Below, one piece after another: positions 649 through 5,292 of a DNA stretch of 64,000 nucleotides. How positions within the stretch are numbered: the first letter of the stretch is position 1; each line of letters opens with the position of its first letter. The notes beneath the pieces are model-generated. The model worked only from the letters and a program-made list of their open reading frames with translations. It was not told the origin of the DNA and searched no databases. Origin of the DNA: Minisyncoccota bacterium (GTDB lineage Bacteria > Patescibacteriota > Minisyncoccia > Phycocordibacterales > CSBR16-193); assembly GCA_040905715.1 (NCBI GenBank), contig JBBDRA010000003.1, positions 459,142-523,141 of the forward strand. The letters run 5' to 3'. The position numbers and the translations under genes were made by a program.

Positions 649-868
649 GGGTCAAGTCACTAAGCTCACTCATCCCTTCGGTCTTCATTCACTAAGTGCT
701 TCCTCCCCGGACTCGGCGACAAGCACTCCCTTCGGTCGTCTTGTAATACCGCCTCCGTCTTTCGATCCCCACCGCCGAAGAGAACCAGAAAGACCCTACC
801 GCTGTCGCGATAGGGTCTAACTGGTTCTAGCTCCGGGGGTGGGGATCGAACCCACGACCACTCGATTA

Positions 869-1432
869 CACTTATCCAACTGTTTCCAGAAGGGGTGGAC
901 TATATCATCTCCCGTTGTTTTATAACACGAGGGAGCGAGGCGCTTCCCATTCGCTGTTAGGCGAACGGTACTCCGTAAAGGATAGTCTCTGAACCTTTCC
1001 GCCGACTGGCGGACTTGGCTGCGGATTTCCATATTCTTTCGAACGTAGGATTCCCGACAATTCACCTCGTTATCATTCCTGAGTTTCCTCAGGAAGCTGC
1101 GAGACACCGTCGTGAACCTCCATATGGCAATTGGCACAAAGTAACACACACTTTTCGATTTCAGCTTTTATCTTTTCCCATGACCTTGTAAGACCACGAG
1201 CAGACATGCCGAACTCTTTCTTTGATTCATCCTTATGATGAAAACTAAGTGCGCGCGGAGATTTGTGGTAACCACACAAGGCACACTTACCGCCCATATG
1301 GTCGCGAGCCATCTGACGAAGTTTTTTTCTTCGTTTCTTCACAGCTTCACGCATATATACGGCGCGGTCGGCGTATGTTCGTTTTTCTGGCATACATAGT
1401 TGAGTATACCATCTTCAACAAACAAGTAGTTC
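869..1432 (-). mobile_element. group I self-splicing intron inserted in the tRNA anticodon loop, carrying an HNH homing-endonuclease ORF
   Basis: Minus-strand reading shows canonical group I core elements downstream of the ORF. P-like AAUUGUCGGGAAUCC at 1048..1062. Q-like AAUCCGCAGCCAAGUCC at 1011..1027, where GCAGCCAAGUCC matches the Tetrahymena Q/P6 segment. R-like GUUCAGAGACUAUCC at 980..994 and S-like GAUAUAGUCCACC at 894..906, which together form P7 (GACUA / UAGUC). A short CUG-GAAA-CAG P9-like hairpin follows, then a terminal G at 869 (alternatively 871). The 5' exon ends in U under the Asn parse. Confidence 0.6.
1073..1393 (-). CDS. HNH family homing endonuclease (intron-encoded)
   Basis: 106 aa with CxxC ... 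FHHKD ... LLCANCHxEVH, the HNH pattern. Same strand as the tRNA and lies between the intron 5' end and the P3-P9 core. Confidence 0.7.
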   Translation of the reverse strand: MPEKRTYADRAVYMREAVKKRRKKLRQMARDHMGGKCALCGYHKSPRALSFHHKDESKKEFGMSARGLTRSWEKIKAEIEKCVLLCANCHMEVHDGVSQLPEETQE

Positions 1433-1989
1433 ACAGTCGAGCGCTCTGCCGCTGAGCTACCCCGGATTATGAGGAGCGGAACGGGATAATTTTTCTACAG
1501 CACCCGCTTTTTGAGAAATTTCATTTCTCAGATTCCGTGGGGCGAAATATACTGAAAAGCTTGTTTTTCTGTATATTGAGCCTCAACGGAACGAGGACTC
1601 AGTCCTCGGAAAGCGGGTGCTGACAAAAGAATTATCACATTGCGTCCGAACTGCACGCCGTGGCAAGGTTTCCTTCCCCCGGATATTCTGTATGTGTAAG
1701 TACATCTACGCCGTCAGCGCAAGCTCTGCTTGCCAGTACGCTTTTGCATAACTCTCGCACATCTTCGGGGCAAGGTCTGCTTACCCCGAAATGATTTCTG
1801 TAAAATACAAACGCTCACTGAGCGTCTTAACATTGTACTTAAAAAGAACAACTTCGCAAATTATACATGACCATATTTTCATTGCTATTGTATTTAAAGT
1901 AACGTACACTGTATGAAATCGACTCTGCAACAGATACTCTGTTTCAGCTCACCGGTTTACATTATCCACGTTTCTCAAACAACACAAGA

Positions 1990-2300: not shown

Positions 2301-3308
2301 CTAATTCTCCTCTCCCTCATCTCGAACAGTTCGTTCCACTCCTTCCTCTTCTACCGAGATCATAGCGTCATGATCTGCACGAATAGTAGCTGCGAGCGTG
2401 GAGCCAAAACTCTGATCACCCTTACGGGAAAGAAACCCGTACCACGGGTAGTCCACTGAAACATCGCCGTCAGCCTCAGCTCGAGCAACTGCCGTTACAC
2501 TCTTAGGAATGAATCCGAACAGATACACCCGTGAATTGTATGTAACCTCGGTCGCCTCAGCGTCAGTTGCAATGTCCTCCACTTCCTCGTTTTCTATCGC
2601 GGCTGAAGCAACCTTGATGCCGAAGTCATTTGCTGAATTCACCTCATTTGCAGCCGCTAGCCGTGCCCGCACTGCTTCTTTCTGCTCAGGATTCCACCCT
2701 CTGACTTCAGCCCCAGAAACACGCAGGCTTATATTGCTCCTTGTTAGCGATTCAACGGAATCCTCATCATCACAATCGTCGCTCCCGCATACTTGTCGAA
2801 TTGACACTCCTTGATACAGAAGCGGACTCGACTGATCTATCATAAGAACATCCATTAGCTTCGGGCTTGCCGCATCAATTTCCTTTGTTGCCCTAAGACT
2901 TGGTGTTGCTTTATCAAGCTCCTTGGTCACGCCCGTACGAGTTGGAACACCGTCACCATCATCGTCTTCATCGTGTGGATCAACAACTCCTTCGGTTTCA
3001 TTAGATCGCGATGAGTTATGATTTTGTGCCCGACCGTCTGAATCACTTTCTGTCCTGACATCAGCGTGACCGTCAGCATCTGTGTCTGAATCGTTCATCT
3101 CTCGCTCTTCCTCTGAGTCATCCGAAACACCGTCGTCGTCACTATCCTCATCCTGAGCAGAAACAGTGGCTGACCCCTCAGCTTGGATCCGTACCGGTGA
3201 TTCTTCGTCTGTGTCATGATCGTCTCCATCGTGCCCTTGCACCACAAGAGCGCCTCCGGAGAGCGCCATGAGCATACACATCGCAACGAGTACTGAAAAA
3301 TTCTTCAT
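2301..3308 (-). CDS. secreted acidic (Asp/Glu-rich) repeat protein, hypothetical
   Basis: N-terminal signal-like hydrophobic segment MKNFSVLVAMCMLMALSGGALVVQG. Long low-complexity D/E/S/G-rich central region. Confidence 0.55.
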   Translation of the reverse strand: MKNFSVLVAMCMLMALSGGALVVQGHDGDDHDTDEESPVRIQAEGSATVSAQDEDSDDDGVSDDSEEEREMNDSDTDADGHADVRTESDSDGRAQNHNSSRSNETEGVVDPHDEDDDGDGVPTRTGVTKELDKATPSLRATKEIDAASPKLMDVLMIDQSSPLLYQGVSIRQVCGSDDCDDEDSVESLTRSNISLRVSGAEVRGWNPEQKEAVRARLAAANEVNSANDFGIKVASAAIENEEVEDIATDAEATEVTYNSRVYLFGFIPKSVTAVARAEADGDVSVDYPWYGFLSRKGDQSFGSTLAATIRADHDAMISVEEEGVERTVRDEGEEN

Positions 3309-5085: not shown

Positions 5086-5292
5086 ATGCAAACAGGAACA
5101 ATTGCGAAGGTAACTGACCGTGGCTACGGCTTCATCAAAACTGATGATCAGGAAGAAGACATTTTCTTCCACGCCAGCGAGCTCACGGAAGGTGACTTCA
5201 ACAGCCTTCAAGAAGGCGACAAAGTTACGTTTGAAGTTGGCGAGAATGACAAAGGTCCATTCGCCCAGAACGTTACTCCAGCAGCTGAGTAA
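5086..5292 (+). CDS. cspA: cold-shock protein (CspA family), second paralog
   Basis: 68 aa; GTIAKVTDRGYGFI...DIFFHASEL. Confidence 0.9.
   Translation: MQTGTIAKVTDRGYGFIKTDDQEEDIFFHASELTEGDFNSLQEGDKVTFEVGENDKGPFAQNVTPAAE

Follow-up and report, generated by a model that had tools for sequence, protein, structure and literature searches.

On the minus strand of the window (the whole 64-kb stretch of DNA that was analysed), a 34-nt tRNA 5′ half at 1466..1433 (TCCGGGG TA GCTC AGCGGCA GAGC G CTCGA CTGT) and a 38-nt 3′ half at 868..831 (TAA TCGAG TGGTC GTGGG TTCGATC CCCAC CCCCGGA G) are separated by an insert of 564 nt (1432..869). The acceptor, anticodon and T stems of the two halves pair perfectly, and every element that the initial annotation had listed for them lies where it was placed. 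The locus is a real tRNA gene whose anticodon loop is interrupted by a group I intron with an HNH homing-endonuclease ORF, and its principal features are as follows.

1546..1575, minus strand: sigma-70-like promoter candidate, TATACA-18 nt-TATATT, about 80 nt upstream of the tRNA
1433..1466, minus strand: tRNA-Asn 5′ exon, positions 1-35, comprising the acceptor 5′ strand, D arm and anticodon-stem 5′ strand
869..1432, minus strand: IA-like group I intron of 564 nt, beginning with G1432 and ending with the terminal G869, recognised by RF00028
1403..1411, minus strand: TGGTATACT, a motif resembling an extended -10 promoter, 9 nt ahead of the HNH start codon
1073..1393, minus strand: HNH homing-endonuclease ORF of 106 aa, inside the P1 loop, recognised by Pfam and by its relatives
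831..868, minus strand: tRNA-Asn 3′ exon, positions 36-73, recognised from sequence, in-silico splicing and relatives
791..818, minus strand: intrinsic-terminator-like hairpin with a 12-bp stem and T-rich tail, 13 nt past the tRNA 3′ end

The anticodon loop of the 5′ exon reads C32 U33 G34 U35, with the 5′ splice site after the U at 1433, and the same tRNA 5′ half was found in 78 related loci. The 3′ exon contributes U36 A37 A38, the anticodon-stem 3′ strand, the variable loop, the T arm, the acceptor 3′ strand and G73; CCA is not encoded. The upstream TATACA/TATATT candidate is a consensus match only, and the count of such sites is near the shuffle expectation. Without intron detection, ARAGORN reported no tRNA in the 64-kb window, and neither with nor without intron detection did it report a second, intact tRNA-Asn there. 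The search with intron detection (-i) that had been proposed as a check did find the gene, but as tRNA-Thr(tgt) with a 564-nt intron at position 33, i(33,564), rather than as tRNA-Asn.

The Rfam check of the insert gave a match of RF00028 (Intron_gpI) to 1125..876 on the minus strand that covers the full model (positions 1-253) with 68.6 bits (gathering threshold 50) and E = 2.6e-15. The P-, Q-, R- and S-like elements that had been picked out by eye correspond to the P4, P6, P7 and P7′ strands of the Rfam alignment, and the CUG-GAAA-CAG hairpin and terminal G noticed after them are part of P9 (889..880) and G869. The window intron core was aligned with those of 43 relatives (alignment A2); the alignment has 56 invariant columns, all 56 of which are preserved in the window, and RNAalifold found compensatory changes in 26 of its 40 predicted pairs, with a covariation term of -8.58 kcal/mol. 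The covarying helices are P2, P3, P4, P5, P7.1, P7.2 and P8. The elements of the ribozyme, in the direction of transcription, are listed below.

1420..1432, minus strand: small hairpin GAAC-UACUU-GUUU, immediately past the 5′ splice site
1097..1102, minus strand: P1 3′ strand, the internal guide sequence UCGCAG, conserved across the family
1076..1095, minus strand: P2 hairpin, UUCCUGAG-GAAA-CUCAGGAA, with many compensatory changes in A2/RNAalifold (columns 8-24)
1063..1069, minus strand: P3 5′ strand CGAGGUG, pairing with 942..936
1019..1060, minus strand: P4-P5 domain, from the Rfam alignment and RNAalifold
998..1013, minus strand: P6 hairpin UCCGCC-AGUC-GGCGGA, from the Rfam alignment and sequence
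983..989, minus strand: P7 5′ strand GAGACUA (R element), pairing with UAGUCC at 902..897
947..982, minus strand: P7.1 and P7.2 between P7 and P3′, a 38-nt insertion relative to RF00028
936..942, minus strand: P3 3′ strand CGCCUCG, from covariation
909..935, minus strand: P8 hairpin, CUCCC (935..931) with GGGAG (913..909), with compensatory changes in columns 239-242 and 280-283
897..902, minus strand: P7 3′ strand UAGUCC (S element), from the Rfam alignment and A2
876..893, minus strand: P9 hairpin CCUUCUG-GAAA-CAGUUGG, from the Rfam alignment, with compensatory variants visible in A2
869, minus strand: terminal guanosine (omega-G), the 3′ splice site lying between 869 and 868

P3 (columns 34-40 with 232-238) changes from CG to UA in 11 sequences and from GC to AU in 19. 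P4 is formed by UUGUCGGG (1060..1053) with UCCGCAG (1025..1019), with GC to CG changes in 13 sequences, and P5 by UCC (1050..1048) with GGA (1030..1028); P6 was not recovered by RNAalifold because its loop aligns with many gaps. P7 is the guanosine-binding helix, and its pairing was read from the sequence because the models do not represent the pseudoknot; the AGAGACTAT and ATAGTCC blocks are invariant in A2, as is the terminal G (G232). The insertion between P7 and P3′ folds as two hairpins, P7.1 (UCC at 982..980 with GGA at 974..972) and P7.2 (CCGUUCGC at 968..961 with GCGAAUGG at 954..947), both of which covary (columns 172-185 and 189-227). On these hallmark helices, without a formal classifier, the intron may be described as IA-like, and published Patescibacteria tRNA introns have been assigned to subgroup IA (PMC13011429).

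[quoted passage not shown] GCAGCTTCC is conserved in most related loci, among which the CUGU/GCAG pairs are invariant, and each of the 15 published tRNA-Asn 35/36 introns has GCAG(C) after its P1 loop. Three other pairings were rejected. In the P1 proposed by Rfam (GGAGGUU..AGCUUCC, 1121..1092), the codons for HMEVH and the P2 strand form an internal hairpin, whose "exon" is not tRNA. A local P1 with the exon end pairing just past the splice site (CUGU/GAAC-UACUU-GUUUGUUG, with a U1433-G1419 wobble) would likewise predict the 35/36 junction; because it is absent from ORF-less relatives, all of which have GCAG, it was kept only as a possible extension or alternative fold. Hairpins analogous to the one at 1420..1432 are visible in GCA_023898525 and GCA_016699245, with folding inconsistent across relatives, and this hairpin is possibly a distal P1 extension or an alternative fold. 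The 5′ exon is also complementary over 8 nt to the 3′ strand of P9 (ACAGUUGG, 883..876), but this match is not conserved in relatives and was therefore treated as chance.

The HNH ORF (1393..1073) was placed by the initial annotation simply ahead of the ribozyme core; ORF and core are both present, but the ORF lies inside the ribozyme, in the P1 loop, past the 5′ splice site and ahead of the guide sequence, and with its last nine sense codons and stop codon it extends over the guide sequence and the whole of P2. Pfam HNH (PF01844) scores the 106-aa protein at 21.0 bits (E = 3.6e-4), just under the cutoff of 21.4, and matches 23 of 24 family members at E < 0.01, the best at 1.9e-6. C37, C40, H52, H53, C82, C86, N88, C89, H90 and H94, a set comprising the catalytic His, Asn and His and the residues of a Cys4 zinc site, are invariant in the 24 sequences, and the window ORF is full length. 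The protein is 61-74% identical to 23 relatives and 50-65% identical to the HNH proteins of four published tRNA-Asn introns; its closest relative in GTDB has at most 75% identity. The identical protein turned up only on Logan contigs from SRR27977658 and SRR27977663. A profile search of the PDB gave weak matches only, to a group II maturase endonuclease domain (E = 0.007) and to McrA (E = 0.43).

The motif before the ORF recurs as the pattern TGnTAnAnT: 48 of 58 ORF-bearing introns have it within their first 140 nt, and the remaining 25,247 nt of intron sequence contain a single hit. An in-frame start codon is 0-11 nt away from it in 43 of the 48, and it also precedes 13 of 15 free-standing copies of the HNH gene. 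TGGTATACT probably acts as the HNH promoter; it was not picked out by a promoter scan because the motif has no -35 element.

At least 554 stretches of species-representative genomes code for relatives of the endonuclease; in 78 of the best 80 GTDB loci with the HNH gene, tRNA-Asn is split at 35/36 (17 leftover loci of the 80 were scanned with half-specific tRNA patterns and Rfam). About 62 species retain, with covariation, the design in which the ORF sits in P1. In 15 related loci, a free-standing HNH gene adjoins a tRNA-Asn gene with an ORF-less 35/36 intron. The HNH gene occurs in three configurations: inside the P1 loop, as a separate gene upstream on the same strand, and as a separate gene on the opposite strand by ORF-less introns. 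Alleles at the site are patchy, the published introns being with or without an ORF, and intronless tRNA-Asn genes also exist. The GTDB loci were used for comparison of the 3′ core, since the published ORF-bearing introns are given to about 400 nt in the supplement. The flanks share a single neighbour, a VanY-like ORF found in L003 (Paceibacterota) and L080. A Patescibacteria source, probably Paceibacteria-like, is presumed.

From the observed anatomy, family membership, covariation, junction and ORF integrity, the locus is best explained, with a probability of roughly 0.88, as a functional tRNA-Asn(GUU) gene of the Patescibacteria type with a subgroup-IA group I intron at 35/36 whose P1 loop carries an HNH homing-endonuclease gene. 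For the window copy, splicing, the activity and target of the endonuclease, and use of the promoter are predicted as follows. A pre-tRNA would be transcribed across 1466..831 and end at the hairpin 818..791; C32-U35 and the first two bases of the intron would pair with UCGCAG (1102..1097) as P1, closing a loop of about 330 nt that holds the ORF, and P2 to P9 would make up the catalytic core. Exogenous guanosine would attack after U35 (1433), G869 would then take its place, and ligation of the exons would create the GUU anticodon in a 72-nt tRNA still needing CCA addition. An extended -10 promoter of its own (TGGTATACT, 1411..1403) probably drives the HNH gene, giving a leaderless or near-leaderless mRNA, and the HNH protein would cut intronless tRNA-Asn genes near the insertion site so that recombinational repair copies in the intron with its ORF (homing). 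Several points count against this explanation: the core of P1 has no more than 4 bp, or 6 bp if the two intron pairs are counted, before an A31xC mismatch, and has to close a loop of about 330 nt; translation of the ORF would take ribosomes across the guide sequence and P2; and the Pfam score lies just below the cutoff, with weak similarity to solved HNH structures.

The junction is where the ARAGORN call and the preferred reading part. The call amounts to a tRNA-Thr(UGU) gene with the same 564-nt intron moved two bases to 33/34 (U33 at 1435, intron end at G871), a highly improbable reading, even though in this copy the exon would end in U and the intron in G at that junction too. Joined in silico at 1435/870 the exons are called Thr(tgt); joined at 1433/868 they give a cloverleaf called tRNA-Asn(gtt), with the anticodon formed by G1434 and U1433 from one exon and U868 from the other, the discriminator G831, and T1466-A832 as U1-A72. 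A U1-A72 pair is typical of bacterial tRNA-Asn, and G34 U35 U36 with the discriminator G73 belong to tRNA-Asn(GUU). T1 and G73 are present in 63 of 63 relatives, and U1-A72 and G73 in all, at variance with the threonine assignment, and the G of the guide GCAG (1100..1097), which pairs with the exon from C32 to U35, makes its wobble with U35 (U1433-G1100) and not with U33; this P1 with its U35-G wobble is kept in the 15 published and about 45 new relatives. Under the 35/36 parse, 74 of 75 relatives have U as the last exon base and G as the last intron base, while under the 33/34 parse no more than 49 of the 75 introns would end in G and the other 26 would end in A. The ligated junction predicted for 35/36 (GACUGU/UAAUCGAG, loop CUGUUAA) is found in real tRNA-Asn genes: its 28-nt sequence has at least 120 exact, uninterrupted matches in metagenome contigs, and 114 of 115 complete uninterrupted copies were called tRNA-Asn(gtt). 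The junction of the threonine type would be AGAGCGCTCGACTTGTAATCGAGTGGTC. The raw identity of 51/72 between an intronless metagenomic tRNA-Asn and the window tRNA is lowered by a 1-nt difference in D-loop length and was not used to gauge relatedness. A recurrent 2-nt mis-call of Patescibacteria tRNA-Asn introns by ARAGORN and tFind has been reported, and the Asn junction was sequenced in a homologue (PMC13011429). Thus the 35/36 junction and tRNA-Asn(GUU), which the initial annotation had preferred, is the correct prediction from the guide sequence, the comparison of intron ends, U1-A72 with G73, and the uninterrupted junctions.

If the gene is tRNA-Asn, it might still be a pseudogene inactivated by insertion, in which the intron or its ORF-bearing version cannot splice and another tRNA-Asn serves. 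This is very unlikely: P1 is short and must form across about 330 nt, and splicing has been tested for an ORF-less homologue only, but all the invariant core positions and all the helices are intact in the window copy, the tRNA stems are perfect and a terminator-like hairpin follows the gene; moreover, retention of the ORF-in-P1 design with covariation in about 62 species implies selection for splicing. Another tRNA-Asn elsewhere in the genome is possible, the survey having covered the 64-kb window; against this, the intron-containing gene is often the sole tRNA-Asn copy in published complete genomes (PMC13011429). A further alternative accepts splicing and supposes that the HNH protein is no longer a homing endonuclease, being either an inactive remnant or co-opted, for example as a splicing helper or a regulator. 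The Pfam score of the window protein is borderline, its first 35 residues, rich in Arg and Lys, might serve to bind nucleic acid in some other role, and limited horizontal transfer of these introns has been argued (PMC13011429). Nevertheless, loss of homing is unlikely, since the catalytic and zinc-binding residues are invariant in 24 diverse members with full-length ORFs, ORF-bearing and ORF-less introns coexist at the same site, and the gene is met both within introns and, at the same target gene, as a separate copy next to ORF-less introns, as would be expected if the endonuclease were active and mobile.

HNH endonucleases encoded in group I introns are known from phages (I-HmuI, I-TevIII and I-BasI), where the enzymes are larger and lie in other intron loops of protein-coding genes; the window protein shares the family and the setting inside a group I intron, with no close sequence relationship detectable. 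The classical introns of bacterial tRNA-Leu, tRNA-Ile and tRNA-Arg, which belong to subgroup IC3, are likewise self-splicing ribozymes of the anticodon loop with a P1 that uses anticodon-loop nucleotides, but they have no ORF and occupy other insertion positions. The cyanobacterial tRNA-fMet intron was reportedly found by Bonocora and Shub in 2001 to encode the PD-(D/E)XK endonuclease I-Ssp6803I; it resembles the present case as a bacterial anticodon-loop group I intron with its own homing endonuclease against the intronless tRNA gene, and differs in the endonuclease family (PD-(D/E)XK, not HNH), in the site (fMet 33/34) and in the phylum. The classical examples are tRNA-Leu(UAA) at 34/35 in cyanobacteria and plastids, Azoarcus tRNA-Ile and Agrobacterium tRNA-Arg (PMC3984707); the tRNA-fMet class is listed in PMC13011429, according to which 81% of bacterial tRNA introns are of subgroup IC.

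The closest known systems are the group I introns at 35/36 of Patescibacteria tRNA-Asn, four of which, among 95 complete genomes, carry HNH (PF01844) genes (Nakagawa, Amikura, Omae and Suzuki, mSystems 2026, PMC13011429; preprint 10.1101/2025.07.03.662931). The window intron shares with them the host gene, the insertion site, the GCAG guide, an IA-type core with P7.1 and P7.2, the HNH family, the place of the ORF with its end running across the guide sequence, and the ARAGORN mis-call as Thr(UGU) at 33/34. Its core aligns throughout with those of GCA_016699245.1 and GCA_026016225.1; the window genome is a different one, and no published sequence is identical. For the ORF-less homologue of GCA_016700035.1, precise self-splicing at 35/36 was demonstrated in vitro, with the junction sequenced and a terminal G-to-C control (PMC13011429); that intron has a 6-bp P1 and no ORF, in contrast to the intron of the window, whose 4+2-bp P1 has a loop of about 330 nt. 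An intron type named Asn.4Ug was catalogued earlier (Williams, 2020 preprint, bioRxiv 10.1101/2020.01.27.920355). It too is inserted behind nucleotide four of the tRNA-Asn anticodon loop, where a U precedes the 5′ splice site and the intron ends in G, and it is reported to be frequent in metagenomic assemblies from unnamed phyla. The work is a computational catalogue only, and the part of it consulted does not discuss endonuclease genes. The initial annotation was aware of no such intron in tRNA-Asn and of none with an HNH ORF in that position, and saw here the best candidate in the window for novelty; this is contradicted by the 2020 listing of Asn.4Ug and by the HNH-carrying 35/36 introns of PMC13011429. 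The arrangement is already published (2020-2026) and common in Patescibacteria, and the window is therefore an ordinary new example; as a discovery it has little weight, the class being published, experimentally validated and widespread.

The comparative data extend the published picture and point to testable features of the expression of the endonuclease and its entry into the intron. The count of at least 554 relatives, with 78 of the best 80 linked to a split tRNA-Asn, argues against the impression given by PMC13011429 that endonuclease-bearing tRNA introns are rare in the phylum. Three features look to be unreported: the ORF in the P1 loop overlapping the guide sequence and P2, the conserved TGGTATACT before the ORF, and the free-standing copies beside ORF-less introns; the text of PMC13011429 makes no mention of an intron promoter, of leaderless expression or of an internal guide. 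Collaborative homing, in which a free-standing homing endonuclease acts with an ORF-less intron, is known from phages (PMC3984707; T4 mobE/I-TevIII, PMC2790892), and a free-standing endonuclease beside an ORF-less intron is the proposed precursor of composite mobile introns (PMC3984707). The 15 related loci with a free-standing HNH gene by an ORF-less tRNA-Asn intron share this arrangement, although the phage systems involve protein-coding genes and the present ones bacterial tRNA genes, known from sequence alone, with the window representing the composite form.

With chances a little short of even, the HNH gene may be an autonomous unit of expression and mobility, with its own TGGTATACT promoter, a leaderless mRNA and three configurations round one target. 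If so, Patescibacteria preserve the stages by which a free-standing endonuclease invades an intron, from collaborative homing to a composite mobile intron, and the invasion would have forced the C-terminus of the protein (Q-L-P) to double as the ribozyme guide sequence and a P2 strand. For annotation, the locus has a more immediate bearing: default tRNA finders miss the gene and ARAGORN with intron detection returns tRNA-Thr, and therefore annotation and completeness estimates of small genomes would wrongly report tRNA-Asn as missing.

The tRNA gene of the window lies on the minus strand in two halves separated by 564 nt, with perfect pairing in the acceptor, anticodon and T stems. Both halves are present as the initial annotation described them, and its whole observation was confirmed in full. 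The features of the locus are as follows.

1466..1433, minus strand: 5′ half of the tRNA, TCCGGGG-TA-GCTC-AGCGGCA-GAGC-G-CTCGA-CTGT, as read in the sequence (700..1700)
1436..1431 with 1102..1097, minus strand: P1, read from the sequence, with pairs C1436-G1097, U1435-A1098, G1434-C1099, U1433-G1100 (wobble), plus G1432-C1101 and A1431-U1102
1393..1073, minus strand: ORF of 106 aa, best Pfam match HNH (21.0 bits; curated cutoff 21.4)
868..831, minus strand: 3′ half of the tRNA, TAA-TCGAG-TGGTC-GTGGG-TTCGATC-CCCAC-CCCCGGA-G, as read in the sequence (700..1700)
818..791, minus strand: terminator-like hairpin (12-bp stem, T-rich tail) from a sequence scan, starting 13 nt past the tRNA 3′ end

CCA is not encoded by the gene. 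A weak sigma-70-like promoter match is located about 80 nt upstream of the tRNA (1546-1575, minus strand). Just upstream of the locus, two paralogous cold-shock-domain-like ORFs of 67-68 aa (1990-2193 and 5086-5292, plus strand) flank an extremely Asp/Glu-rich ORF of 335 aa with an N-terminal signal-like segment (2301-3308, minus strand); a Pfam CSD label was seen only for the first cold-shock-like ORF (1990-2193), on L001.

The intervening sequence is a group I intron, as initially proposed. An Rfam scan matched Intron_gpI at 1125..876 on the minus strand with 68.6 bits (gathering score 50; E = 2.6e-15), covering the whole model, and identified no other RNA family in the 64-kb window. The window, 41 related loci and two published introns were aligned over the segment that begins at the guide sequence and ends at the terminal G. 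This alignment contains 56 invariant columns, among them the P7 strands AGAGACTAT and ATAGTCC and the final G, and the window has all 56. RNAalifold recovered P2, P3, P4, P5, P7.1, P7.2 and P8 from this alignment, with 26 of 40 predicted pairs represented by sequences in which both sides have changed and pairing is kept; P6, P7 and P9 are readable from the sequence and the Rfam alignment. Between P7 and P3′ (982..947) there are two additional hairpins, the signature of subgroup IA, in which nearly all Patescibacteria introns were placed by Nakagawa, Amikura, Omae and Suzuki (mSystems 2026, PMC13011429). The ribozyme looks functional.

The identity of the tRNA depends on the position of the intron within the anticodon loop. 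ARAGORN in default mode found no tRNA anywhere in the 64-kb window; with intron detection it found the split gene and labelled it tRNA-Thr(tgt), placing the 564-nt intron at position 33, and in neither mode was a second tRNA gene found in the window. Splicing in silico at 1435/870 (33/34) yields tRNA-Thr(tgt), and splicing at 1433/868 (35/36) yields tRNA-Asn(gtt). ARAGORN and tFind often mis-call genes interrupted at 35/36 as tRNA-Thr(UGU) at 33/34 (PMC13011429). The 35/36 parse gives an exon ending in U and an intron ending in G in 74 of 75 family members; splitting at 33/34 instead would leave A as the last intron base in 26 of the 75. In all 15 published sequences (Table S3, PMC13011429), the P1 loop is closed by a GCAG(C) block, located immediately 5′ of P2, with which exon bases C32-U35 (CUGU) can pair such that U35 forms a U-G wobble. 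The window carries the block of Paceibacteria introns unchanged, GCAGCTTCC, at 1100..1092. None of the 58 ORF-bearing introns departs from the four core P1 pairs, and position 31 is paired in these introns only if it is occupied by G. Each of the 63 relatives first recovered has T1 and discriminator G73, and every spliced product from these 63 was called Asn by ARAGORN. A metagenome scan for the predicted 28-nt anticodon arm spliced at 35/36 found at least 120 uninterrupted copies; among the matches listed, 114 of 115 complete uninterrupted copies are tRNA-Asn(gtt). On these grounds the 35/36 tRNA-Asn reading, preferred from the outset, is well supported, and tRNA-Thr at 33/34 is an annotation artefact.

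The sole family member with an annotated intron ending in A (...ataagca|TAAC) is the published sequence of GCA_016700375.1, either a real exception or a boundary issue of 1-2 nt in the published table. Directly past the 5′ splice site is a small hairpin, GAAC-UACUU-GUUU (1420-1432, minus strand); a GGTTC/GTTC motif occurs 8-12 nt into the intron in many relatives (5′ ends of L003-L082), its complementary partner not always present. Another hairpin, GGAGGUU...AGCUUCC (1092-1121, minus strand), which Rfam aligned as P1, pairs the HMEVH codons with the guide/P2 strand and might form at the expense of the real P1 and P2. GGAAG/CUUCC complementarity recurs among relatives, but this may be a simple consequence of M-E-V codon conservation.

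The feature is real and its structural interpretation correct, but the claim of novelty fails. The insertion type was catalogued as "Asn.4Ug" by Williams (bioRxiv 2020, 10.1101/2020.01.27.920355), and among 95 complete Patescibacteria genomes, 15 tRNA-Asn(GUU) genes carry group I introns at 35/36, four of which encode HNH (PF01844) endonucleases; one ORF-less homologue self-splices precisely at 35/36 in vitro, with a sequenced product and a terminal G-to-C control (PMC13011429). The window element is an ordinary additional member of this recently described class, which is abundant as shown here. Three details go beyond PMC13011429: a promoter-like motif, free-standing copies of the endonuclease gene and an RNA-shaped C-terminus.

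By the proposed mechanism, the pre-tRNA would be transcribed and the intron would fold with P1 closing across the ORF; guanosine is predicted to attack after U1433, whereupon G869 would dock and the exons be joined to form the GUU anticodon, with CCA added thereafter. The HNH protein would be expected to cut intronless tRNA-Asn genes, driving homing.

The initially noted HNH ORF looks intact. Two CxxC pairs and the HH, N and final H residues are invariant in the family alignment, and 23 of 24 family members match PF01844. The window protein has 50-65% identity to the four proteins from published tRNA-Asn introns and 61-74% to 23 other relatives; solved structures resemble it only weakly, the top matches being a group II intron maturase, in its HNH region (E = 0.007), and McrA. 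Pairing with 1102..1097 places the ORF inside the P1 loop, and its last nine sense codons and stop (1073-1102, minus strand), which read GTC TCG CAG CTT CCT GAG GAA ACT CAG GAA followed by TGA, run across the guide sequence and the entire P2 (1095..1076). Proteins encoded within introns have the C-terminus ...QLP..., the translation of G-CAG-CUU-CC (GCAGCUUCC) in the guide sequence and P2 strand, while most free-standing copies lack QLP and end in KIP, ILP, KID or others; thus, the intron-borne C-terminus is shaped by the RNA.

Of 58 ORF-bearing introns, 48 have the motif TGnTAnAnT, mostly TGGTATACT, within their first 140 nt (1411..1403, minus strand, in the window); the rest of the intron sequence, 25,247 nt, yields a single match. 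An in-frame start codon follows the end of the motif by 0-11 nt in 43 of the 48, and 13 of 15 free-standing HNH copies retain the motif. It resembles an extended -10 promoter that would give a leaderless or near-leaderless mRNA, suggesting that the endonuclease is expressed from a promoter of its own as a leaderless message. Alternatively, TGGTATACT may be a protein-binding site, as its GTATAC core is palindromic. In a term search, PMC13011429 gave no match for an intron promoter, "leaderless" or "internal guide".

The endonuclease is common. When one genome per GTDB species was scanned for HNH relatives, 554 of 600 stretches among the matches listed were confirmed, giving at least 554 relatives. 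The best 80 of these are almost all from Patescibacteria MAGs, with 60-75% identity, and in 78 of the 80 loci a group I intron splits tRNA-Asn(GTT) at 35/36; L024 and L068 have no tRNA-Asn half within the fetched sequence. A protein identical to that of the window was identified only on Logan contigs; its nearest relatives, together with one neighbouring gene in common, suggest a probable origin from a Paceibacteria-like Patescibacterium. At 15 loci an intact, free-standing HNH gene immediately adjoins a tRNA-Asn with an ORF-less 35/36 intron, on the same strand (L007, L044, L045, L051, L058, L080) or the opposite strand (L004, L013, L062, L065, L072, L074, L076, L079, L082). The series from this configuration to a composite intron as in the window resembles collaborative homing, the pathway to composite mobile introns covered in the review PMC3984707, and by this analogy the free-standing configuration is a possible precursor stage. 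The contigs of L035, L074 and L077, which carry the Patescibacteria-type split tRNA-Asn and HNH element, belong to MAGs that bear the labels Burkholderiales, Nitrospira and Gammaproteobacteria; these contigs are probably mis-binned, horizontal transfer being less likely.
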